The translations under genes and the position numbers were made by a program. Positions 6,414-27,414 of a DNA stretch of 64,000 bases are shown piece after piece. Positions within the stretch are counted from its first letter, which is position 1; every line of letters starts with the position of its first letter. The notes below the pieces were generated by a model that saw only the letters and a program-made list of their open reading frames with translations, made no database searches and was not told where the DNA came from. The DNA is from a phage, in the sequence record PZ534512.1. One strand, 5' to 3'.

Positions 6414-6898
6414 TTTTAAAAACTCGCTGGTATGATTTAGATGATGGGGATGATGGCATTTCAGTTGATAGAGTTGACTGGAGTGGCTGTTCCGAAGATA
6501 TGAAAAAAATGTTAATTAGGGAGTTTAGAATGGGATATCAAGCAGCTAAGCCATCTACTATAACAGATGATAAGTTCGTATGTATTCATAATGGTCGCGC
6601 TAAGTTAACGAACGCTGATTGGTTCACAGATAAAATTATGATTCTGTGGTATATTATTAGTCTTCCTGTGACATCATTCGTATTTTACTTTTTTATAAAA
6701 AATCCAATGGACAGAATAGGAGATTGGATTCTTTTAACCATACTTGTTAATATTTTTACAGCAGCAATATTATCTGGGATATGGTGCGTGTTCATTGAAA
6801 TGCCATGGCGGTTACGCAGACAGCAAAAGATTTTTGATGAAAAGAAATATACTCAAAATTTAAATAACTTTATCACTGAATGCAGGAAATTAAAATGA
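6410..6898 (+). CDS. membrane protein (162 aa), ECR-tail family
   Basis: ATGA overlap; two TM helices; C-terminus NFITECRKLK. Confidence 0.5.
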   Translation: MILKTRWYDLDDGDDGISVDRVDWSGCSEDMKKMLIREFRMGYQAAKPSTITDDKFVCIHNGRAKLTNADWFTDKIMILWYIISLPVTSFVFYFFIKNPMDRIGDWILLTILVNIFTAAILSGIWCVFIEMPWRLRRQQKIFDEKKYTQNLNNFITECRKLK

Positions 6899-7335
6899 AA
6901 ACACTATCAGCTGGTATTATCTTTATGACAGAAGATAAAGATTTATTTATGGGACGAGTTACTGGTTCTCGTAAACCTGGATTGATGGCACATCGCTGGG
7001 ATATTCCAAAGGGGCGTGTAGAAAGTTCTGATTTAAGCGCATTAGATGCAGCACGAAGAGAATGCTTAGAAGAGACCGGTTTTAGCAATTATAATCCAGA
7101 CCTTCTAGAAGACCTAGGTGTATTTAAATATTCTAGTAATAAAGACCTACAGTTATTTTATTATACGATTCCAGTAGAGCATGAGATGTTTAGAAATTGC
7201 CATTGCGAGTCTTATTTTGAAAATAAAGATGGTGTTATGATTCCAGAAATGGACGCTTTTGCTCTTATTCCTCGTACTCAGTGGCAATATGTGATGGGTC
7301 CTTCACTTTACCGAATAATGAACAGCCTCTTTTAA
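6880..7335 (+). CDS. nudE: Nudix hydrolase NudE
   Basis: Nudix box RRECLEETGF; 151 aa; immediately upstream of e as in T4. Confidence 0.8.
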   Translation: MQEIKMKTLSAGIIFMTEDKDLFMGRVTGSRKPGLMAHRWDIPKGRVESSDLSALDAARRECLEETGFSNYNPDLLEDLGVFKYSSNKDLQLFYYTIPVEHEMFRNCHCESYFENKDGVMIPEMDAFALIPRTQWQYVMGPSLYRIMNSLF

Positions 7336-17121: not shown

Positions 17122-17583
17122 ATGATTATTAATGAAAACTCTTGGCACTATAAATTATTCAAACTGTTTAACGACGAATGGAAACGACCTAAGACACTGT
17201 GTGCATACTTTTGGTCTATTGTTATCCCTACATTTTTCGTTTCTTTTTTCGGATGTACTATACTCGCAGGTCTAACTATTATCTGTGCAGAAATCATGCA
17301 GAAATGGCTTATTTTTGGTAGTTTATGGACTCTTATTCCATCAGCATTTATACTTGCCATTTTGCTTGTTTTACTTATTATTGGTTCATTTGTTATTCCT
17401 GCACAACTGCATGAAAAATATAAAGATTATAAATGGAAAAAGGATTATGCTTTACATGTAGAAAATATTGATAGGGCGTATAAAGGTTTACCTCCTATTC
17501 AACCCAAGAAATCTATTATCGTCGAATTTTTAAAAGCACGTAAAGCTAAAGTATGTCCTGTTATTGAATATAAGGCTGAATGA
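17122..17583 (+). CDS. multi-TM membrane protein (153 aa)
   Basis: three hydrophobic helices; AAAGGA RBS. Confidence 0.55.
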   Translation: MIINENSWHYKLFKLFNDEWKRPKTLCAYFWSIVIPTFFVSFFGCTILAGLTIICAEIMQKWLIFGSLWTLIPSAFILAILLVLLIIGSFVIPAQLHEKYKDYKWKKDYALHVENIDRAYKGLPPIQPKKSIIVEFLKARKAKVCPVIEYKAE

Positions 17584-18593
17584 TGAAAACAGTAATGAAA
17601 AGCTATTTTGGTAGTCATCTTTATGGAACTTCTACTCCAGAATCTGATGTAGATTTTAAAGAAATCTTTGTTCCTCCTGCTCGTGATATTCTTATCGGAA
17701 ATGTTAAAGAGCATATGAGTAAAAACACTAACAACACATCATCTAAAAACACTAAAGATGATATTGACCATGAACTATACAGTCTTAAGTATTTCTTTAA
17801 ATTAGCAGCAGATGGTGAAACTGTAGCATTGGATATGCTCCACACTCCACCGGAACTAGTAGTTAAATCTGATTTGCCTGATGTATGGAAGTTTATTCAA
17901 GACAATCGTTCTCGTTTTTATACGACCAACATGAAATCCTACTTAGGATATGTTCGCAAGCAAGCTTCTAAATACGGTGTTAAAGGTTCTCGTTTGGCCG
18001 CATTACGCGATGTATTGAAAGTAGTTAATCAAATCCCCGATCAGTGGGTTGATTACCAAGAAGATGGTTCTATTAAGCAGCGTCGCACTAAAGTTGAAGA
18101 TATTAAGCATCGTCTTCCAGAAAACGAATTCTGTGAATGGGTGTTCCATAATCATGAGAAAACAGGTCCACAGACGTTTTACACAGTGTTGGGTCGTAAA
18201 TATCAGACAACGCTTTCTCTTATTGAGCTTAAGCAGTCACTGAACAAATTAGATGCTGAATATGGTGAACGTGCTCGTAAGGCCGAAGCCAACGAAGGCA
18301 TTGACTGGAAAGCTCTGAGCCATGCCTGTCGTGGTGGACTTCAACTATTGGAAATTTACAAAACTGGCGACTTGGTTTATCCACTTCAAGACGCTCCATT
18401 TATTCTCGACGTGAAGTTGGGTAAACATCCATTTAAAACAGTTCAAGAGTTTTTGGAAGATGTGGTCGATCAAGTAGAAGCAGCATCTACTGAAGCTTCT
18501 AAGAACGGTATGCAGCAAAAAGTAGACATGGGTTTCTGGGATGACTTCCTTGAGAAGGTCTATCTTGAAAACCACCGAAGTTATTATAAATGA
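17580..18593 (+). CDS. Pol-beta-superfamily nucleotidyltransferase-like protein (337 aa; T4 nrdC.11 position)
   Basis: hG[GS]...DxD motif YGSHLYGTSTPESDVDF near N-terminus. Confidence 0.6.
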   Translation: MMKTVMKSYFGSHLYGTSTPESDVDFKEIFVPPARDILIGNVKEHMSKNTNNTSSKNTKDDIDHELYSLKYFFKLAADGETVALDMLHTPPELVVKSDLPDVWKFIQDNRSRFYTTNMKSYLGYVRKQASKYGVKGSRLAALRDVLKVVNQIPDQWVDYQEDGSIKQRRTKVEDIKHRLPENEFCEWVFHNHEKTGPQTFYTVLGRKYQTTLSLIELKQSLNKLDAEYGERARKAEANEGIDWKALSHACRGGLQLLEIYKTGDLVYPLQDAPFILDVKLGKHPFKTVQEFLEDVVDQVEAASTEASKNGMQQKVDMGFWDDFLEKVYLENHRSYYK

Positions 18594-18595
18594 TA

Positions 18596-18619
18596 GGGAG
18601 CCTTCGGGCTCCCTTTTTT
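18596..18619 (+). terminator. UUCG-loop hairpin terminator
   Basis: gggagcc-ttcg-ggctccc then tttttt. Confidence 0.7.
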
Positions 18620-18643
18620 ATTTCAAAAATTTTTCACAAAACG

Positions 18644-18673
18644 GTTTACAAGCATAAAGCTTTATGGTACTAT
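18644..18673 (+). promoter_or_regulatory. T4-type early promoter with conserved leader
   Basis: GTTTAC-N18-TACTAT then acaactatcaactgatacag. Confidence 0.7.
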
Positions 18674-18707
18674 ACAACTATCAACTGATACAGATTTGGA
18701 GAATAAA

Positions 18708-19676
18708 ATGAAAACTGTAACTATCAATAAGGGTATCTACTTCGGTAAAGAAATCTCTGGAACTTTTGAGCTCTTAGGCGAATGGTTCCCAGATAATGCT
18801 CCGGTAGATGCACAAGGAGATGGTAAAGTTTTTGTTGAAATTGACGGTAAGCGTCGCGGTGTTTGGGTTTACAAATCAGACATTTCATATGATGGTGTAA
18901 AAGTTGAAGAAGTTAAAGAATCATATGAAGATATGAAAACCCGCATTAATAAAAGATTTAATGTTATGGGAATGATGACGAATGGTATTATTAACGGAAA
19001 CATTCGTTCATTAATTATCTCTGGTGCGGCGGGTATTGGTAAAACGTATTCTTTAGATAAAGCTTTAAATAAAGCAAATGATATTGGATACATTGAATAT
19101 AAAAGCATTAATGGTAAAATCTCTGGTATTGGTCTTTATGAACAGCTTTGGAATAATCGTGAAGAGAATTCTGTCCTTTTGATTGATGATGTGGATGTTT
19201 TCTCTGATATGGACATTCTTAATCTTCTGAAAGCTGCTCTGGACACTGGAGAGACCCGTAAAGTCTGCTGGAGCACTGCGTCTTCTTACTTAGAAGAAAA
19301 AGGCATTGAGCGTGAGTTTGAATTTAAAGGAACGATTGTTTTTATCACAAACGTTGACATTGACCGCGAATTAGACCGTGGTACTAAACTTGCTCCACAT
19401 TTACAAGCATTAGTGTCCCGCTCAGTTTATTTGGATTTGGGTGTTCACACTAATGAAGAAATTATGGTCAGGGTTGAAGATGTTATTCTTTCAACTGACA
19501 TGATGCAAAAGCGCGGTCTTTCTGATGAAGAAACTTATAAAGCATTATCATGGATGAAAGTCAATGTTAATCGTTTACGCAATGTTTCACTGCGTACTGC
19601 TCTTTATCTTGCTGACTTTATTATGACAGACAAAAACGGTTGGGAAGAAATTGCTGAAACGGTATTATTAAAATGA
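18708..19676 (+). CDS. AAA-type ATPase (322 aa; T4 nrdC.10 position)
   Basis: Walker A GAAGIGKT, Walker B LLIDDVD; GGAGAATAAA RBS. Confidence 0.65.
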   Translation: MKTVTINKGIYFGKEISGTFELLGEWFPDNAPVDAQGDGKVFVEIDGKRRGVWVYKSDISYDGVKVEEVKESYEDMKTRINKRFNVMGMMTNGIINGNIRSLIISGAAGIGKTYSLDKALNKANDIGYIEYKSINGKISGIGLYEQLWNNREENSVLLIDDVDVFSDMDILNLLKAALDTGETRKVCWSTASSYLEEKGIEREFEFKGTIVFITNVDIDRELDRGTKLAPHLQALVSRSVYLDLGVHTNEEIMVRVEDVILSTDMMQKRGLSDEETYKALSWMKVNVNRLRNVSLRTALYLADFIMTDKNGWEEIAETVLLK

Positions 19677-20392
19677 AAAAATATTTTACTATCTATAAAA
19701 CTGAAATATTAAATTTAAAGACAGGTATTAAGAAATACTATTATGGTCGACATATAACTAATAACATCAATGATTCGTATGTTGGTAGTGGAAATTATAT
19801 AGAACGTGTAAAAGTGTCAAATGACCACATATTATCAAAAACGGTTTTAGAAGTTTTTGATAATTATGATAAAATGGTACAAGCTGAAATATTATATATC
19901 ATGGCAGGTAAATTGAAATATGGAAAAAACTGTGTTAACCTGTCATACGGGGGTGAAGGAGGAAAGGTTGCAGATGAAACTAGGATAAAATGCAAAAAGC
20001 ATTCTATAAATTTATGGAAAAATCCTAATCATATACAGCATATGAAGAAAAAGATGAAAGAGGTCACATCCACGCCGGAAGCTAAATTAAACACTTCAAT
20101 AAAAACTTCGCAACGATATAAGGACCCAGTTTTTGTTAGAAAAGTTAGTAATATTATTAAAAAGAAACTAAGCAATCCTGTAGTAAAAGAAAAGCATATT
20201 AATGGAATTAAAGCTGCAAAGCGTTCTCATTTAACTATATGGCAATATGAAGATGAATTATTCGAGCTTTGGAAAGAAACTAAATATGGATGGAGAAAAT
20301 TTACAAAGGAAGCTATAAAACACGGGTATCCAAATGAACCGTATCGTAGTATGGTATCAACCTTTCAGAAAAGACATTTAGAAGAATCCTAA
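19673..20392 (+). CDS. GIY-YIG homing endonuclease (Seg-like)
   Basis: TIYKTE...KYYYGRH and SYGGEGG motifs shared with SegB; AT-rich codon usage. Confidence 0.6.
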   Translation: MKKYFTIYKTEILNLKTGIKKYYYGRHITNNINDSYVGSGNYIERVKVSNDHILSKTVLEVFDNYDKMVQAEILYIMAGKLKYGKNCVNLSYGGEGGKVADETRIKCKKHSINLWKNPNHIQHMKKKMKEVTSTPEAKLNTSIKTSQRYKDPVFVRKVSNIIKKKLSNPVVKEKHINGIKAAKRSHLTIWQYEDELFELWKETKYGWRKFTKEAIKHGYPNEPYRSMVSTFQKRHLEES

Positions 20393-20837: not shown

Positions 20838-21365
20838 ATGAATGCTAAAGATATTTTCAACTTGGTAAACTACAATGATGGTAAATTTAAATCTGAAGCA
20901 CAAAGTAAGTTCTTTAATGACATCTCAATCGGTGGTGAAATCACGGTTGATGGAGGACAAGTTTATAAATCTCGTTGGAATTGGATCGTTATTATCGATG
21001 AGATTGGTATTGTAGAAATTTACAAAAATACGAATAAAAATCGTACATTACACTGGTCTCGTGATACTAACGAACAGTACAAAAAGGATAAAGCATCTAA
21101 ATTATCTCGTGTAACTCAAGAAGATATTGAGTTCATCAAGAAAGATATTTTGATGTATGATAACTTAATTGCTGAAGAGCAAGCTGTTATTGATAAATTT
21201 GACGAGATTAAAGCTTCTCGTGAAATTCCTGATTTTATGAAAGAATCAGTAAATGAACGATACACTCTCATTTCAGAGCGTATTGAAACTTACAAAAAGC
21301 AAAGAGCTGAACGCCAGAATACTCTTCAGAAGTTTGAAGAACGGTTAAAGACGGTACTCGCATAA
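20838..21365 (+). CDS. hypothetical protein (175 aa)
   Basis: GGAGGAACAGAAA RBS; ORF-track extension runs through promoter. Confidence 0.55.
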   Translation: MNAKDIFNLVNYNDGKFKSEAQSKFFNDISIGGEITVDGGQVYKSRWNWIVIIDEIGIVEIYKNTNKNRTLHWSRDTNEQYKKDKASKLSRVTQEDIEFIKKDILMYDNLIAEEQAVIDKFDEIKASREIPDFMKESVNERYTLISERIETYKKQRAERQNTLQKFEERLKTVLA

Positions 21366-21420
21366 CCGCTTTATACCAAGGATGGTATAATGGTTCTAAG
21401 CCCTTTTAATTGAGATTATT

Positions 21421-21825
21421 ATGAAACAGTTGATAATTAAAAGATTGAATTTATTGATATGTTGTTTATGTATAGTAATTGCATATGGTTATTACGCAAT
21501 TAATGATTATATGCATTATAAAGATTATGATGTTACTGTAGTTAATACCATTACAGGAACTCAAGGAAAGGGGTCTAGTTTATCATTTATTGCTGTATAT
21601 GAACTCAAAGACGGTTATAGATTTAGTGAATATATTTCCCCAGAGATGTATTCTTCAATAGAAAAAGGTGATAATATTACTGTAAGTTTACGTCCTTTCG
21701 ACGTAAAACAGACATTGTTTGATAATATTGTTTGGTTCTTTGGAATGGTATTAGTTCAATCTGTATGCGGTGCTTATATAGTCTTTTCCATCATATTCTG
21801 TGTATTTAGTAAAATTGAAAATTGA
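21421..21825 (+). CDS. membrane protein (134 aa)
   Basis: N- and C-terminal hydrophobic helices. Confidence 0.5.
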   Translation: MKQLIIKRLNLLICCLCIVIAYGYYAINDYMHYKDYDVTVVNTITGTQGKGSSLSFIAVYELKDGYRFSEYISPEMYSSIEKGDNITVSLRPFDVKQTLFDNIVWFFGMVLVQSVCGAYIVFSIIFCVFSKIEN

Positions 21826-22724
21826 GTGAGAAAAATATGTCAGTAGTAATTAATAATGTCAATGCAGTAATTAAATCTTTAGTTAATAAAAAATTAAATG
21901 AATGGACTGTACTTCGTCGTGGAGAGCCAGATAAATTTTTTCATAGATTTAACCCAACTTTGGATTTGAATGTTATTGACAGAGATGTTCATGCTGAAAT
22001 TTTAGATAAATTTAAAGTTGATATTGGGTTTGGATTAGATAAACATTTGCAACGAACAAACGGATCTGGAATGGGTTTATCTAATCGCATCATGAAAGCC
22101 CTTAATAAAATTGGAGCATTGTCTCGTATTAACGCGAGTGAAATCCTTCGCAATTATAATAAAGGATATGACCTTTATGGTCGATTAATGCCGAAATTAT
22201 CATTTGACCAAATGATCGCAGATTTGTGGGAAAATCAACGACGATTATTAGCATTAGGCGCTCGATTAGCTAAAGGTCTAGATAAACAAATGATTTTTAA
22301 GACCAATAATACAGAAGACCTTAAATGCTTTAAATTTAGTATTCGCGGCGATGATTATTATATCAGAGCTCGCTCTACAGATTATGTTAATATGGGGCAT
22401 CATCTCTGTTTAGCTTTTGAAGTTTTAAAAGAAGCCGGAACATTAGAATATTCGTCTGGTGCAAAATGCCCGATTGGTTCAAGTTGTATTTTAATTTATC
22501 GCCCGGATGAATCCAGTTCATCTAAATTACCTACAAAACCTGTACCAGTTCGTAGTAACGAAAAACATTCTGAACAAATTGATTATTTTAATAAGCAAAT
22601 TGAAGAGCTGAATATTTCTATTCAACAGTATGACGATGAAATTTTCAGACTATCTGGATTGAGTAGTAAAGCTAAATCTGAGCGTGAAAAATTAATTAAA
22701 ATTGTTGATTTACTTAAATCTTAA
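21822..22724 (+). CDS. hypothetical protein with C-terminal coiled coil (300 aa)
   Basis: ATGA overlap; alternative start at 21837; heptad-like C-terminal ~45 aa. Confidence 0.55.
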   Translation: MSEKNMSVVINNVNAVIKSLVNKKLNEWTVLRRGEPDKFFHRFNPTLDLNVIDRDVHAEILDKFKVDIGFGLDKHLQRTNGSGMGLSNRIMKALNKIGALSRINASEILRNYNKGYDLYGRLMPKLSFDQMIADLWENQRRLLALGARLAKGLDKQMIFKTNNTEDLKCFKFSIRGDDYYIRARSTDYVNMGHHLCLAFEVLKEAGTLEYSSGAKCPIGSSCILIYRPDESSSSKLPTKPVPVRSNEKHSEQIDYFNKQIEELNISIQQYDDEIFRLSGLSSKAKSEREKLIKIVDLLKS

Positions 22725-22732
22725 GGAACACT

Positions 22733-23761
22733 ATGAAAACTCGTTCTCAAATTGAAGATATGGTTCGTAATGCCAGCTATACTCGTGATGTTATGACATT
22801 TTTGTGTGAAAATAATTTAGACCCTGATAAAGTTAATCGTGTTATTCATCACTTTAAGTATACGAATAGCAGTGAATGGGTGCGTAATTTTAGTAAAGCG
22901 GGGTATATTACACAAATGACTGCTCGTGAGCAGCTCACCGATTTCTGTAAAACTATTGATTATAAAAATCCTCTATTTGTTCAAGGTGTTGGTCAGAGTA
23001 AGGTTGATTTATCATCTGGATTTTTTAATCCAAATCATTATCGTATTGAATGGAGATTTATTGCTCTATTCCGTAAGCAATTAAAGCAAATTTTGTCGAC
23101 GGCTAGTCGATTAAAAGGTTCTGACATTAACTTAAAGAACCTGAAATTTGATGGTTATACTCTTCAGATGGAAGTAAGACCATTAAAAGAAAATAACAGA
23201 ACTGCACGAATTAGCTTTAAACCTAATACAAAAAATTCTCTTTCAATTTGCGAATGCCTTAAATCGCAGTTGACAGAAGCATTTAAGTATATGGATGTTG
23301 TTGCCGCTGTTCAGTCTAAGATTTTACCTCGTTTTGAGCGAAATTGGGAACATACAACAACATATGAACTTGATATGGTTGTTTCATTTAAATATGATTT
23401 TTTGAGAAAGGACGAAGTCCCGCAAGAGAAAAAGCAGGAAGTACAAGATAACTTAAATTTAAATTTATCCAATTACTTATCAAACGATCCTAAATTTTGG
23501 ATGTATAGTTCAGGTAATAAAGATGCATGGAAATTTAATAAAGTGAATTTTCTTCCTATTGAAAATCCGAGTCTTAAACCTGTTGAAAAATGGCATGCAG
23601 ATGCGATTGAGAAGTCTATCAAGGCAGTAGATGATGAACTCGTTAAAGCAACTAATGAAGTGCTAGAAGCTGAAAAGATGTTGGAAAAAGCTCAAGAAAA
23701 AGTCAAAAATCTTACGAAGCAACGTTCTAAACTGAACAATGCACTAAATGCACTGAACTAG
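22733..23761 (+). CDS. hypothetical protein with C-terminal coiled coil (342 aa)
   Basis: AAGGAACAC RBS; C-terminus ...LEKAQEKVKNLTKQRSKLNNALNALN. Confidence 0.55.
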   Translation: MKTRSQIEDMVRNASYTRDVMTFLCENNLDPDKVNRVIHHFKYTNSSEWVRNFSKAGYITQMTAREQLTDFCKTIDYKNPLFVQGVGQSKVDLSSGFFNPNHYRIEWRFIALFRKQLKQILSTASRLKGSDINLKNLKFDGYTLQMEVRPLKENNRTARISFKPNTKNSLSICECLKSQLTEAFKYMDVVAAVQSKILPRFERNWEHTTTYELDMVVSFKYDFLRKDEVPQEKKQEVQDNLNLNLSNYLSNDPKFWMYSSGNKDAWKFNKVNFLPIENPSLKPVEKWHADAIEKSIKAVDDELVKATNEVLEAEKMLEKAQEKVKNLTKQRSKLNNALNALN

Positions 23762-23790
23762 TTTACATTGCCACAAGGATGTGGTATAAT
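23761..23790 (+). promoter_or_regulatory. T4-type early promoter
   Basis: GTTTAC-N18-TATAAT, overlapping stop of upstream gene. Confidence 0.65.
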
Positions 23791-23818
23791 GTTCTTACTT
23801 TCTACTGAGGAGATTATT

Positions 23819-24820
23819 ATGACTCGCAACGAATATATTAAATCGTTCAACAGCGTTATTGATGATAAAGCTATACCGATGTTTGGTCAAAATATCGTTC
23901 TTTCTATTATCAATCAATGGCTCAATAATACTGATGCAAGTATTGTTTCTTCTACTAAATTTATTCATGAAATTCGTAAAATTTCTAGCCGTGTAGATAA
24001 AGATGTTATTAAGAAAACCTTTAAAGAGTCTCGTCTTCTTTCATATTTGGTTAATCGGGATATTCTTGGTAATTTTGGGAAAGAAATTAAACGAACTAAA
24101 GATGTAGTAGGATATAATTGGTTCGGTGATGTTAATTCTTATCATCTTAATAATAAAGAAGACCCTGAGAATATTTTTACTCGTCGTTGGATTAGTAATT
24201 TCAAACTTTTCAAAGGACAAATTCTAAAATCAGCTTCTAAATTATGTTATGGCGATTATCGTCAAATTCATCCTTTGGCTTCTGATATGATTATCGTAAA
24301 AGAATATGAGCTTGATGAAAATAAAGTAGCTATTTTTGTGAATTATGGATTTTTTACACCAAACGCTAGCCAAAAGAATATTAATAAATTTTTCTCAATT
24401 GCTAGCACTATAACTCGTCAGTTAGAGACTGCATTACTTTGTATGGAAACAGTAGAAAATATTCATACATATCCTTTTAAGAATATATGCGGATGGGAAG
24501 GATATAAAATTGTAATTAGTCTTCGTGAAGTGAAATGTGCTTATTCACCTACTGATAAAGAAATTTATCAACAAAAATGTGAGGAAATTGTGAATACTTC
24601 TAAAGAAGAAACTACCCTTGAGGAACTAATGGATAATCTTGATGATTCGCCTGAACCGGCAGAAATTCGTCCAGAAGTTATTGCATTAGAAAAAGCTTAT
24701 AAAGAAGTTCTAGAAATTTCTAATAAAGCGCAGAAAGAATATGAGCAGGCTAAAAAGATTTGGGAAGAATCTGTCAATCGCTTGGATCGTCTTGAACAAG
24801 CTTTACAGTTAATTAAGTAA
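23819..24820 (+). CDS. hypothetical protein with C-terminal coiled coil (333 aa)
   Basis: leader ctactgaggagattattATG; C-terminus ...RLDRLEQALQLIK. Confidence 0.55.
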   Translation: MTRNEYIKSFNSVIDDKAIPMFGQNIVLSIINQWLNNTDASIVSSTKFIHEIRKISSRVDKDVIKKTFKESRLLSYLVNRDILGNFGKEIKRTKDVVGYNWFGDVNSYHLNNKEDPENIFTRRWISNFKLFKGQILKSASKLCYGDYRQIHPLASDMIIVKEYELDENKVAIFVNYGFFTPNASQKNINKFFSIASTITRQLETALLCMETVENIHTYPFKNICGWEGYKIVISLREVKCAYSPTDKEIYQQKCEEIVNTSKEETTLEELMDNLDDSPEPAEIRPEVIALEKAYKEVLEISNKAQKEYEQAKKIWEESVNRLDRLEQALQLIK

Positions 24821-24872
24821 TTTAAAGCCAAGGATGGCTCGGAGCATAAATCATTAACCAAGTGAGAAGAAC

Positions 24873-25802
24873 ATGAAAACTCGTAAACATTATATTGATT
24901 ATTTTGACAGTCTTATTACTAAACATCGTAATTATCAGATAGGACACAGAGCAGTAATCAATAATATTCTTCGTGATTTCCTTCAATATGTTGGCCAGGA
25001 AAATCATATCTGTAAAGATACTCAAAACGCTTATTCTCATTCGTTAGGCAATTTGCTTGAATGGTTTAAACGTTCTCGTATGTTATCTTCTACTGTAGCT
25101 CACGATAACATTAAAAACTTTATGAAGCCGAGCTTTATTAAATCTGAGACATCTATAACCGATTTGGTTGAATTTACTATTGTTAACGATGTTAAAAAGA
25201 CTCATTTGGCTGATTGGTTATCTACCATTCCTGAAACTAAATTTGCTGATAAATTTGCTTGTCAATTCAATGACCAAGTGAATATGCTTTTTAAGCATGC
25301 TCGCAAACTATTTACCGCGGGCGATGACCGTACAAATACAGTTCATGTTAAGGACTGGGTTATTGCTGATGAAGTAACACACAAGCCAGGTGGTTCATCA
25401 GTATTAATTAATATCCAGGTTCCTTATTATTACTCACGTAATCTTGGCACCATGACAGCTAAAGAAATTAATAAGCACAACAAAACTATTCGTTCGTTGT
25501 CTTATAAACTCCGCATGATGTTAAAAATTATGGACGTAGTGGAAATGTATGACGAAACCGAAAATAATGGTTCAATGTTATACAGTTCACGCATTCTAAT
25601 TAAACTGAAGAACCCTAATACATATAAGACAGTTGTAAAAGAGCCTAAAGTAGAAAAGGTTGATAATCTGAGTGAAGAACGCGAATATCTCAATGCCCGT
25701 TTGATTGAAGTTGAAGCCCAAATTGCAGAACACACCAAATTGTTAAAAGCTCTTAATGCAAAAGCAAATGGTTTACGTAATGCTATTGAGGTATTGAAAT
25801 GA
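24873..25802 (+). CDS. hypothetical protein with C-terminal coiled coil (309 aa)
   Basis: GAGAAGAAC RBS; C-terminus ...[21 protein letters not shown]. Confidence 0.55.
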   Translation: MKTRKHYIDYFDSLITKHRNYQIGHRAVINNILRDFLQYVGQENHICKDTQNAYSHSLGNLLEWFKRSRMLSSTVAHDNIKNFMKPSFIKSETSITDLVEFTIVNDVKKTHLADWLSTIPETKFADKFACQFNDQVNMLFKHARKLFTAGDDRTNTVHVKDWVIADEVTHKPGGSSVLINIQVPYYYSRNLGTMTAKEINKHNKTIRSLSYKLRMMLKIMDVVEMYDETENNGSMLYSSRILIKLKNPNTYKTVVKEPKVEKVDNLSEEREYLNARLIEVEAQIAEHTKLLKALNAKANGLRNAIEVLK

Positions 25803-26188
25803 AAAAGCGTTTATTAGAAGACATTGCAGCTTCAAGTAATTCCAGTTTAATTAAAATTATTATGGCTGGTGAGGAAGATGATATGGAAATGCGTGGAAAG
25901 ATTCACGGCTGCGACGATTTAGATTTTAAACCTCCAGCATGGGATGCTATTATGGCTATGGTTGAACGACGTGAAAGAGCTTCTAAAAACGTTCCTAATT
26001 GCCCTGAATGCGGTACTGAACAAGTTCAATTGATTAACTGGCGTAAACCAGAGCTTGAATATAAATGCCGTCATTGTAAACATAAATTTAATAAGCATGC
26101 TCCGGAAATGGTTAAATTGCCTGACTCTACTGAGTTCTTTAAAGAACTTGTGAGTGTTCAACCAATGCCTAATAATATTTTGGATTAA
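25799..26188 (+). CDS. C4 zinc-ribbon protein (129 aa)
   Basis: CPECG...CRHCKHKF. Confidence 0.5.
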
Positions 26189-26190
26189 AA

Positions 26191-26433
26191 ATGACCAAGC
26201 GTAAAGAATATATGGAGACTGCTGAAAAGGCAGTCCGTGAATTAGCAATAGCTTATTATAATGAACATGGTAAATTTCCTGATAGATACAGCGTGCTTAA
26301 ATCTGCTGTAACTCGTTCATACAAAAATATGCTATCAGAAGTAAGTGATATTATATACAAACATAAAGAACAAACGGGCCAAAGTCTTGATTACGACGAG
26401 ACTTTTAAACAAGTACTAGGAATTAAGGAATAA
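26191..26433 (+). CDS. hypothetical protein (80 aa)
   Basis: tightly packed ORF. Confidence 0.5.
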
Positions 26434-26434
26434 T

Positions 26435-26698
26435 ATGTTTAAAGTATATGGTTATGATAGCAACATCCATAAATGTGTGTATTGCGATAATGCAAAACGT
26501 CTTTTGACTGTGAAGAAACAGCCGTTTGAATTTATCAACATTATGCCGGAAAAAGGTGTTTTTGATGATGAGAAAATTGCTGAGCTTCTGACGAAACTAG
26601 GTCGTGATACTCAAATCGGCTTGACAGTGCCTCAGGTATTTGCTCCTGATGGAAGTCATATTGGTGGATTTGACCAACTGCGAGAATATTTTAAATGA
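26435..26698 (+). CDS. nrdC: glutaredoxin/thioredoxin NrdC
   Basis: 87 aa; CVYC active site; matches T4 NrdC. Confidence 0.92.
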   Translation: MFKVYGYDSNIHKCVYCDNAKRLLTVKKQPFEFINIMPEKGVFDDEKIAELLTKLGRDTQIGLTVPQVFAPDGSHIGGFDQLREYFK

Positions 26699-27093: not shown

Positions 27094-27414
27094 ATGACTA
27101 TTGAAAATAAATTAGATGTTGATGCAGTTCTGAGCGAAATCATTGAAGACCATGATGCATTTTCGGAAAACTATGATTTCGATTTTTCCGATTATCTTAA
27201 ACCTATCGAAATAGAAGACTGGGTGCAAGATGGTAAATGCCAATATCGTCAGTGTGTTTACTTTAGTCCAAAACATAATGTACATGTAGCGGTAAATGAA
27301 TCTCGGTCAGGTTCTTATCATTCTGACTGGTATTATGCAGTTCCGACTGTTGAACTAGTCGAGCCCCGTGAACGTGTAGTAACTCAGATAGTACGAGAAT
27401 GGATTACGCTATAA
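27094..27414 (+). CDS. hypothetical protein (106 aa)
   Basis: GGTGAAAAA RBS. Confidence 0.5.
   Translation: MTIENKLDVDAVLSEIIEDHDAFSENYDFDFSDYLKPIEIEDWVQDGKCQYRQCVYFSPKHNVHVAVNESRSGSYHSDWYYAVPTVELVEPRERVVTQIVREWITL

Follow-up and report, generated by a model that had tools for sequence, protein, structure and literature searches.

What are four consecutive genes, each encoding a protein of about 300 amino acids (aa) with its own N-terminal body and a long C-terminal helix, doing side by side in a phage genome? The question is raised by the open reading frames (ORFs) between positions 21822 and 25802 of a 64,000-nucleotide (nt) stretch of phage record PZ534512.1, given as one strand, 5' to 3', and referred to here as the window. 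An initial annotation, made from the letters alone, had described four proteins with unrelated-looking heads and a shared oligomerization tail and had pointed to phage T4 nrdC.3-nrdC.6 for comparison. The four ORFs are the orthologs of T4 nrdC.6, nrdC.5, nrdC.4, and nrdC.3, in that order. Our best explanation, to which we assign a probability of about 0.6 as a whole, is that they are tandem, diverged paralogs of one family found only in T4-like phages (Straboviridae), and that they form an early-expressed anti-defense array in an accessory region with two proven counter-defense genes, nrdC.5 and gp49.2.

Identity of the four ORFs

The window is part of a Tequatrovirus (T4-like) genome in the orientation opposite to that of the T4 record, and 657 phage records match positions 21400-26200 at 80-99% DNA identity. 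Comparison of gene order with T4 (NC_000866) and with the close relative OR062946 placed the four ORFs between nrdC.7 and nrdC.2/nrdC, and the T4 annotation and the protein identities both confirmed the suggested correspondence. Identity to the T4 protein was 97% for nrdC.6 (over residues 1-259), 94% for nrdC.5, and 95% for nrdC.4, and only 61% for nrdC.3. All four ORFs lie on the + strand and end in exactly the C-terminal peptides first reported, but the start of the first ORF had been misplaced: TTG 21822 is a mechanical ORF start, and we set the start of nrdC.6 at the ATG at 21837, since all homologs, including that of T4, begin with MS(V/Q)xIN and a GAGTGAG sequence lies 6 nt upstream. The start of nrdC.4 at ATG 23819 is correct, as it lies downstream of both a promoter (23762-23790) and a GAGGAG Shine-Dalgarno sequence.

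Each of the four proteins matched a PHROG profile over its full length (E = 1e-116 to 1e-170), all of these profiles being annotated as "unknown function." The DUF7235 match of nrdC.5 scored 433 bits, against a cut-off of 30, over residues 1-342. No family for nrdC.6, nrdC.4, or nrdC.3 was present in the local copy of Pfam; precomputed Pfam labels assign PF26897 to nrdC.4 and PF26899 to nrdC.6.

Relatedness of the heads

Pairwise BLASTP of the four proteins linked only nrdC.4 and nrdC.3 (E = 4e-7), which also fall into a single PHROG (phrog_1435) and align over the whole head with an hhalign probability of 97.8%. A combined nrdC.4 and nrdC.3 profile matched nrdC.5 with 70.9% probability (E = 3.8e-5). 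An exhaustive profile search also recovered a 315-aa protein (P0234) with an nrdC.4-like head and an nrdC.5-like tail, which matched the nrdC.5 family with 92.6% and the nrdC.4 family with 94.1% probability over ~240 columns each. Because P0234 matches both families, nrdC.5, nrdC.4, and nrdC.3 belong to one family, and judged by their sequences the three are homologous. The early impression of unrelated heads therefore holds at the BLAST level, and there only for nrdC.6 and nrdC.5; it fails for nrdC.5, nrdC.4, and nrdC.3 once profiles are compared and, at the level of predicted fold, for nrdC.6.

The case for nrdC.6 is structural. Profile-profile comparisons of the other families with nrdC.6, using heads alone, tails alone, or merged profiles, were not significant and stayed at the level of controls. 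We made AlphaFold2 models of nrdC.4 and nrdC.6 from diverse alignments (mean predicted local distance difference test scores of 79 and 77, respectively), and the two models contain the same order of secondary-structure elements. In Foldseek searches, both matched the BFVD entries A0A7G3KGN9, A0A0A0PZG4, and A0A345AUV5, with E-values between 1e-6 and 1e-8. These common targets are uncharacterized proteins, 300-335 aa long, from T4-like phages of Enterobacter, Pectobacterium, and Acinetobacter. The motif [ILM]L..[AGH][SA][RK]L.{1,3}G.?D occurs in nrdC.6, nrdC.5, and nrdC.4 only, among 98 ORFs of the window, although it was devised post hoc from these very sequences and serves as an illustration only.

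C-terminal heptad tails

We assessed the tails on family alignments with a custom measure of heptad periodicity and a permutation test rather than with a standard program such as COILS or Marcoil. In each of the four tails, one heptad register runs without a break for 44-54 residues, with 81-88% hydrophobic residues at the a and d positions, compared to 20-28% elsewhere (permutation p ≤ 0.002 for all four). We ranked the window's 62 + strand ORFs with 120 aa or more by a crude single-sequence heptad score at the C terminus: nrdC.5 scored best and shared ranks 1-3 with nrdC.4 and nrdC.3, followed by the upstream neighbor nrdC.8 in fourth and nrdC.6 in fifth place. Since the five best of 62 scores all belong to proteins of the nrdC cluster, the clustering of heptad tails is not a matter of chance. 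The AlphaFold2 model of nrdC.4 consists of helices at residues 3-84, an alpha/beta domain at 88-235, a disordered stretch at 261-284, and one 48-residue helix at 285-332, and a low-confidence linker precedes the tail in the nrdC.6 model as well. Thus the heptad-like C-terminal helices noted at the outset are borne out by modeled helices, periodicity, and ranking alike. The coiled coils themselves are a prediction from periodicity and from these helices, and homo-oligomerization through them would be a further step.

Within each orthologous family, the tail evolves more slowly than the head. Identity in the tail versus the head was 57-70% vs. 41-45% for nrdC.6 (across genera), 57-67% vs. 42-51% for nrdC.4, and 32-36% vs. 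24-31% for nrdC.5; among nrdC.3 alleles it was 78-82% vs. 60-61%. The division into body and tail is a real feature of these proteins, and the variation of nrdC.3 is concentrated in its central domain. What did not survive is the idea of one shared oligomerization tail. Between paralogs, only 4-9 of 44 tail positions are identical in register, no better than in register-preserving shuffles, so there is no common tail sequence. As the design of the tail is common and the interface is not, homotypic association is favored over co-assembly.

Co-assembly is the alternative to which the initial annotation led most directly: the four proteins would join through their C-terminal helices into a hetero-oligomer that displays four heads and works as an adaptor or decoy scaffold. 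The tails are indeed of the same design and similar length and finish in the same heptad phase (...a..d-e-COOH, usually L/I and then K), the genes are adjacent and predicted to be co-expressed early, and the neighboring nrdC.8 carries a similar tail. However, tails that are conserved within families and yet match each other only at shuffle level show the pattern of separate homotypic interfaces, and nrdC.5 supplied alone on a plasmid rescues the phenotype described below. In addition, T4 nrdC.6 has no tail, owing to a frameshift, nrdC.3 is absent outside Tequatrovirus, nrdC.4 is deleted in a natural phage, and copy number differs from 1 to 4 between genera. We therefore consider co-assembly quite improbable.

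Alternatively, the tail may be the working end, an amphipathic helix that docks on a conserved host or phage partner or on a membrane, with regulation or specificity left to the head. In each family, the tail is conserved best, and even in an nrdC.4 homolog of 36% overall identity it is almost invariant; its core favors Ala, Ser, Tyr, and Trp over Leu and Ile, and the modeled nrdC.6 helix is broken at a conserved Gly. Against this, one common partner predicts similar tails, whereas those of the paralogs are dissimilar; the tails contain no hydrophobic stretch or known docking motif, and their weak library matches are to coiled-coil segments of BrxC and PgrA. Docking by the tail thus seems unlikely to us.

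Proposed counter-defense function

Dsr1, an NADase, is a widespread SIR2 defense protein. A T4 mutant with deletions that remove nrdC.5 does not plate on Escherichia coli carrying Dsr1 of ECOR17, and plasmid-borne expression of nrdC.5 alone restores infection of Dsr1-carrying cells (Srikant 2022, PMC9391042), so that the description of the four proteins as having no known function was already outdated for one of them. The sensor of Dsr1, which it has in common with Avs7, is activated by a phage major capsid protein (PMC13581612). The ORF for gp49.2, whose T6 counterpart inhibits the OLD defense nuclease (PMC13096335), occupies 27094-27414 of the window, about 1.3 kb downstream of the last array gene. 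Given the nrdC.5 phenotype and the proximity of gp49.2, we read the array as part of an anti-defense island. In our literature search, nrdC.5 was the sole protein found reported as a direct counter to Dsr1; NAD+-reconstitution pathways evade Dsr1 by a different route.

How might such an array work? In the predicted layout, each protein begins with an N-terminal helical bundle, continues with a central alpha/beta domain, and ends in an amphipathic heptad helix of 44-54 residues that is attached by a flexible linker. We propose that they are transcribed early, from cassettes of the PeSL type that combine a promoter with a hairpin, and that every paralog blocks a host immune protein stoichiometrically, without enzymatic activity and presumably through direct binding. 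The central domain would set target specificity, and the tail, by forming a homotypic coiled coil, would render the inhibitor multivalent toward defense proteins that are themselves oligomeric. NrdC.5 made early could then occupy or lock Dsr1 before capsid protein appears. Consistent with a non-enzymatic role, searches of Pfam, NCBIfam, PADLOC, and PDB sequences gave no signature of an enzyme or a defense family in any of the four; PDB, PADLOC, and NCBIfam returned only weak coiled-coil or helical-repeat noise. A resemblance of the nrdC.3 N terminus to an integrase SAM-like domain (E = 0.002-0.07) was far below the cut-offs, and we rejected it.

Several observations weigh against this explanation. 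An experimental phenotype exists for only one of the four genes, T4 nrdC.5, and the anti-defense roles of nrdC.6, nrdC.4, and nrdC.3 would follow from homology and neighborhood. NrdC.5 itself may stop Dsr1 by binding, through effects on NAD+, or by an indirect route. The profile E-values of nrdC.6 (0.08-0.4) are no better than those of the controls nrdC.10 and nrdC.8, so nrdC.6 is joined to the other three at the level of predicted fold only. The TM-scores of the cross-matches are modest (0.4-0.5). NrdC.6 also has a nearly invariant core of 60 residues (NYNKGYDLYGR...NQRRLLALGARLAxGxDKQMxFKTN), which hints at an active site or a fixed partner interface more than at a surface shaped by an arms race. 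Finally, the a and d positions of the tails hold many Ala, Ser, Tyr, and Trp residues, so the tails need not form a stable coiled coil of the classical kind.

The same observations could be taken further than our best explanation takes them. The proteins may be modular blockers of immune receptors, with each central domain tuned to a different host sensor of conserved virion proteins (the Dsr1/Avs7 class and others), perhaps by imitating the surface of a virion protein, and with family-specific tails that build homo-oligomers to match oligomeric receptors; the discrete nrdC.3 alleles, the differences in copy number between genera, and the flanking cassettes would then amount to machinery for swapping specificities. 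We offer this extended model tentatively and doubt that it is correct in full. Another suggestion is mimicry: with a central alpha/beta domain made to resemble a conserved virion protein of the tail-terminator type, the proteins would be early decoys that saturate host sensors of structural proteins without activating them. The similarity to tail terminators (lambda gpU, T5 p142, Mu, and others) has a low match score of a kind that is common also to unrelated folds, however, and the terminators are late structural proteins with neither an N-terminal helical bundle nor a heptad tail, whereas nrdC.3-nrdC.6 are predicted to be early. Mimicry of this kind is in our view very unlikely.

Hundreds of GenBank records call these proteins "thioredoxin," and the genes do lie beside nrdC, from which one might take them for accessory proteins of nucleotide metabolism or redox chemistry. 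That label derives from the locus name nrdC.N, and the real NrdC is a separate 87-aa ORF at 26435-26698. No thioredoxin, glutaredoxin, or enzyme-family match was found in Pfam, NCBIfam, or the PDB sequence search, and for thioredoxin and glutaredoxin the Pfam and NCBIfam searches were empty up to E ≤ 1. The redox interpretation is thus effectively refuted, and a widespread misannotation can be corrected.

Table 1. Window positions of the array genes, their tails, the promoter cassettes, and the two genes preceding the array.
Feature	Position	Strand	Description
nrdC.6	21837-22724	+	295 aa; phrog_2257; helical N-domain, alpha/beta domain, linker, heptad tail
nrdC.5	22733-23761	+	342 aa; Pfam DUF7235 (PF23882), E = 8e-130; phrog_2351
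nrdC.4	23819-24820	+	333 aa; phrog_1435; central member of the sequence-detectable family
nrdC.3	24873-25802	+	309 aa; phrog_1435; nrdC.4 paralog; Tequatrovirus-specific; several allele classes
nrdC.6 tail	22560-22718	+	predicted helices 242-271 and 277-294, kink at a conserved Gly; a/d 81% hydrophobic, p = 0.001
nrdC.5 tail	23594-23755	+	residues 288-341, 7.5 heptads; a/d 88%, p < 0.0005
nrdC.4 tail	24671-24817	+	residues 285-333; a/d 86%, p < 0.0005
nrdC.3 tail	25668-25799	+	residues 266-309; a/d 85%, p = 0.002
PeSL-type early promoter of nrdC.4	23762-23790	+	-35 TTTACA 23762-23767; -10 TATAAT 23785-23790
Weakened PeSL-type cassette before nrdC.3	24821-24850	+	TTTAAA 24821-24826; CATAAA 24845-24850; spacing 18
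Cassette before nrdC.7	21374-21391	+	extended -10 TGgTATAAT, -10 at 21386-21391; no good -35 hexamer
nrdC.8	20838-21365	+	175 aa; phrog_2274; different, shorter, beta-rich head and C-terminal heptad tail
nrdC.7	21421-21825	+	small predicted membrane protein (T4 annotation); phrog_2547; outside the family

Promoter-hairpin cassettes

PeSL modules have been described as sigma70-type early promoters with a stem-loop, mostly between the -35 and -10 hexamers, and in the hyperplastic regions of T4-like genomes they border non-essential ORFs, and a role in the shuffling of modules is attributed to them (Arbiol 2010; Comeau 2014). Three cassettes in and before the array (Table 1) fit this description, as predicted from their sequence; the papers describe the cassettes and not this protein family. 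The cassette of nrdC.4 (TTTACA-17-TGgTATAAT) matches the consensus at 11 of 12 positions and has the additional TG, in agreement with the T4/PST PeSL consensus TTTACW-N17-TAYWAT (PMC4122927). A hairpin, CCACA-AGGA-TGTGG, lies between its hexamers within 23769-23786, and the cassette is kept in 14 related loci of several genera, in which the stem flanks covary.

The cassette before nrdC.3 has the hairpin AGCCA-AGGA-TGGCT (24826-24839) and a weakened -10 hexamer, CATAAA, compared to TATAAA in T4 and in four of the five related loci that we compared. A scan with the promoter consensus did not list it. The proposal that two of the genes have early promoters of their own is thus sound for the textbook promoter of nrdC.4 and has to be qualified for nrdC.3. 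Upstream of nrdC.7, the extended -10 overlaps the hairpin TACCA-AGGA-TGGTA, in accord with the description of the PeSL class (PMC2839356), and the 40-nt block of this cassette recurs almost unchanged immediately before nrdC.6 in other genera. Neither nrdC.6 nor nrdC.5 has its own promoter; both follow nrdC.7 in one apparent transcription unit, and the nrdC.7 cassette probably drives nrdC.7-nrdC.6-nrdC.5. All three cassettes contain the constant hairpin core CCA-AGGA-TGG, with flanking stem pairs that vary from copy to copy and from genus to genus and yet stay complementary.

Natural variation of the array

At least three allele classes of nrdC.3 exist inside Tequatrovirus (≥90%, about 75-78%, and about 60% identity), and ~270 of 654 phage records fall into the 60-80% band. 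The alleles are mosaics: identity is 80-95% over the first 60 residues, 30-75% (mostly 30-65%) over the central residues 81-260, and 60-75% in the tail. We take these allele classes within one genus, with their divergence in residues ~81-260, as the signature of an arms race, in support of our explanation.

Rearrangements were found as well. One phage (P0120) has an nrdC.5::nrdC.3 fusion with nrdC.4 deleted and the junction at a short VN microhomology, Shigella phage Sf25 (P0122) has an internal duplication in nrdC.6, and in phage Pinarejo (H175) nrdC.6 is reduced to its last 47 codons. In the T4 reference, nrdC.6 (NC_000866, 9067-9894) encodes 275 aa with a frameshifted peptide at the end, and the tail-coding DNA persists out of frame just upstream of nrdC.5 (compare window positions 22600-22724). 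This truncation reflects either a frameshift of recent origin or a mistake in the reference. Together, the fusion, the duplication, and the T4 frameshift indicate that the region is plastic and that the genes are individually dispensable.

Distribution and synteny

The array is old, syntenic, and variable in copy number, the family having 1 to 4 members depending on the genus. In Acinetobacter phage Acj61, p120 and p121 are adjacent to each other and lie beside nrdC, both with heptad tails, and by length (330 and 304 aa) they fit BFVD E5E4A1 and E5E4A2, which were matched by our two models. Single tailed members are located next to nrdC.2/nrdC in Klebsiella phage Mineola, Yersinia phage fHe-Yen9-01, and Enterobacter phage RZH. 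No tailed member was found near nrdC in Cronobacter phage leN, Providencia phage PSTCR6, or Shewanella phage Thanatos-2, and, with the database size set conservatively, jackhmmer searches started from the Mineola, fHe-Yen9-01, RZH, and Acj61 members gave no links. Nine more distant loci (L008-L016) have nrdC.6, nrdC.5, and nrdC.4 and lack nrdC.3. A second scan of viral contigs with the nrdC.6 alignment added no further contigs.

Out of 1.84 billion representatives, a deep profile search retrieved only 10 proteins, all of them T4-like phage sequences, and the family therefore has no detectable cellular relatives. In three of the more distant loci (L008, L011, and L015), nrdC.6 and the nrdC.5-like gene are separated by a gene for a predicted membrane protein of 71 aa (~6844-7157), and nrdC.7 is missing from its place ahead of nrdC.6.

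Comparison with known systems

T4 NrdC.6, NrdC.5, NrdC.4, and NrdC.3 are direct orthologs, encoded in the same order next to nrdC and with the same promoter cassettes. This phage differs from T4 in its nrdC.3 allele, in the weaker -10 hexamer of the nrdC.3 cassette, and in an intact nrdC.6, which in the T4 reference is frameshifted before the tail. The anti-Dsr1 activity is that of T4 NrdC.5, to which the protein encoded here is 94% identical.

A parallel in role is offered by DSAD1 of an SPbeta-type phage, which, like NrdC.5, neutralizes a defense-associated sirtuin whose sensor recognizes a virion protein. The target of DSAD1, DSR2, senses the tail tube, whereas Dsr1 senses the major capsid protein, and the likeness of DSAD1 to NrdC.5 is one of described role. 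Those parts of the published accounts on which we draw describe neither a paralog array nor a heptad tail for DSAD1, and nrdC.5 had no match at E ≤ 0.5 among PDB chains in a copy that should include DSR2-DSAD1 complexes. The gp49.2 protein shares the genomic island (the pin-nrdC accessory region), early expression, restriction to Straboviridae, and inhibition of a defense system with the array (PMC13096335), but it is an unrelated small protein of 106 aa, has no heptad tail, and is not a member of the family. A closely related record names it "12.6 kDa protein," and the T4 record labels 49.2 "ribonucleotide reductase," apparently another misnomer.

All four are established accessory genes of the best-studied phage and do not make up a new kind of system, and the insight gained is incremental and concerns the family. 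Our literature search found no description of the paralogy, the conserved synteny, the conservation of tails versus heads, or the nrdC.3 allele mosaic. With nrdC.5 placed in a tandem paralog family, nrdC.6, nrdC.4, and nrdC.3 become candidate counter-defense specificities, and the relatives found in phages of Klebsiella, Yersinia, Enterobacter, and Acinetobacter extend the list of candidates. The paralogy also points to the central domain as the likely determinant of specificity and to the tail as a putative oligomerization element.

Neighboring genes

The profile of nrdC.8 had no significant match to any of the four families, and by its tail this gene possibly encodes a fifth tailed protein of the cluster. 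Farther upstream, a 239-aa homing endonuclease (19673-20392; phrog_314, E = 2e-30) is encoded between nrdC.10 and nrdC.9. T4 has no gene at this position and has mobD beyond nrdC.11 instead. Positions 17580-19676 of the window comprise nrdC.11 and nrdC.10. For nrdC.10, there were weak matches to P-loop/STAND-type NTPases, all under the cut-offs, and nrdC.11 matched the RlaP nucleotidyltransferase family (PF10127, E = 3e-11).

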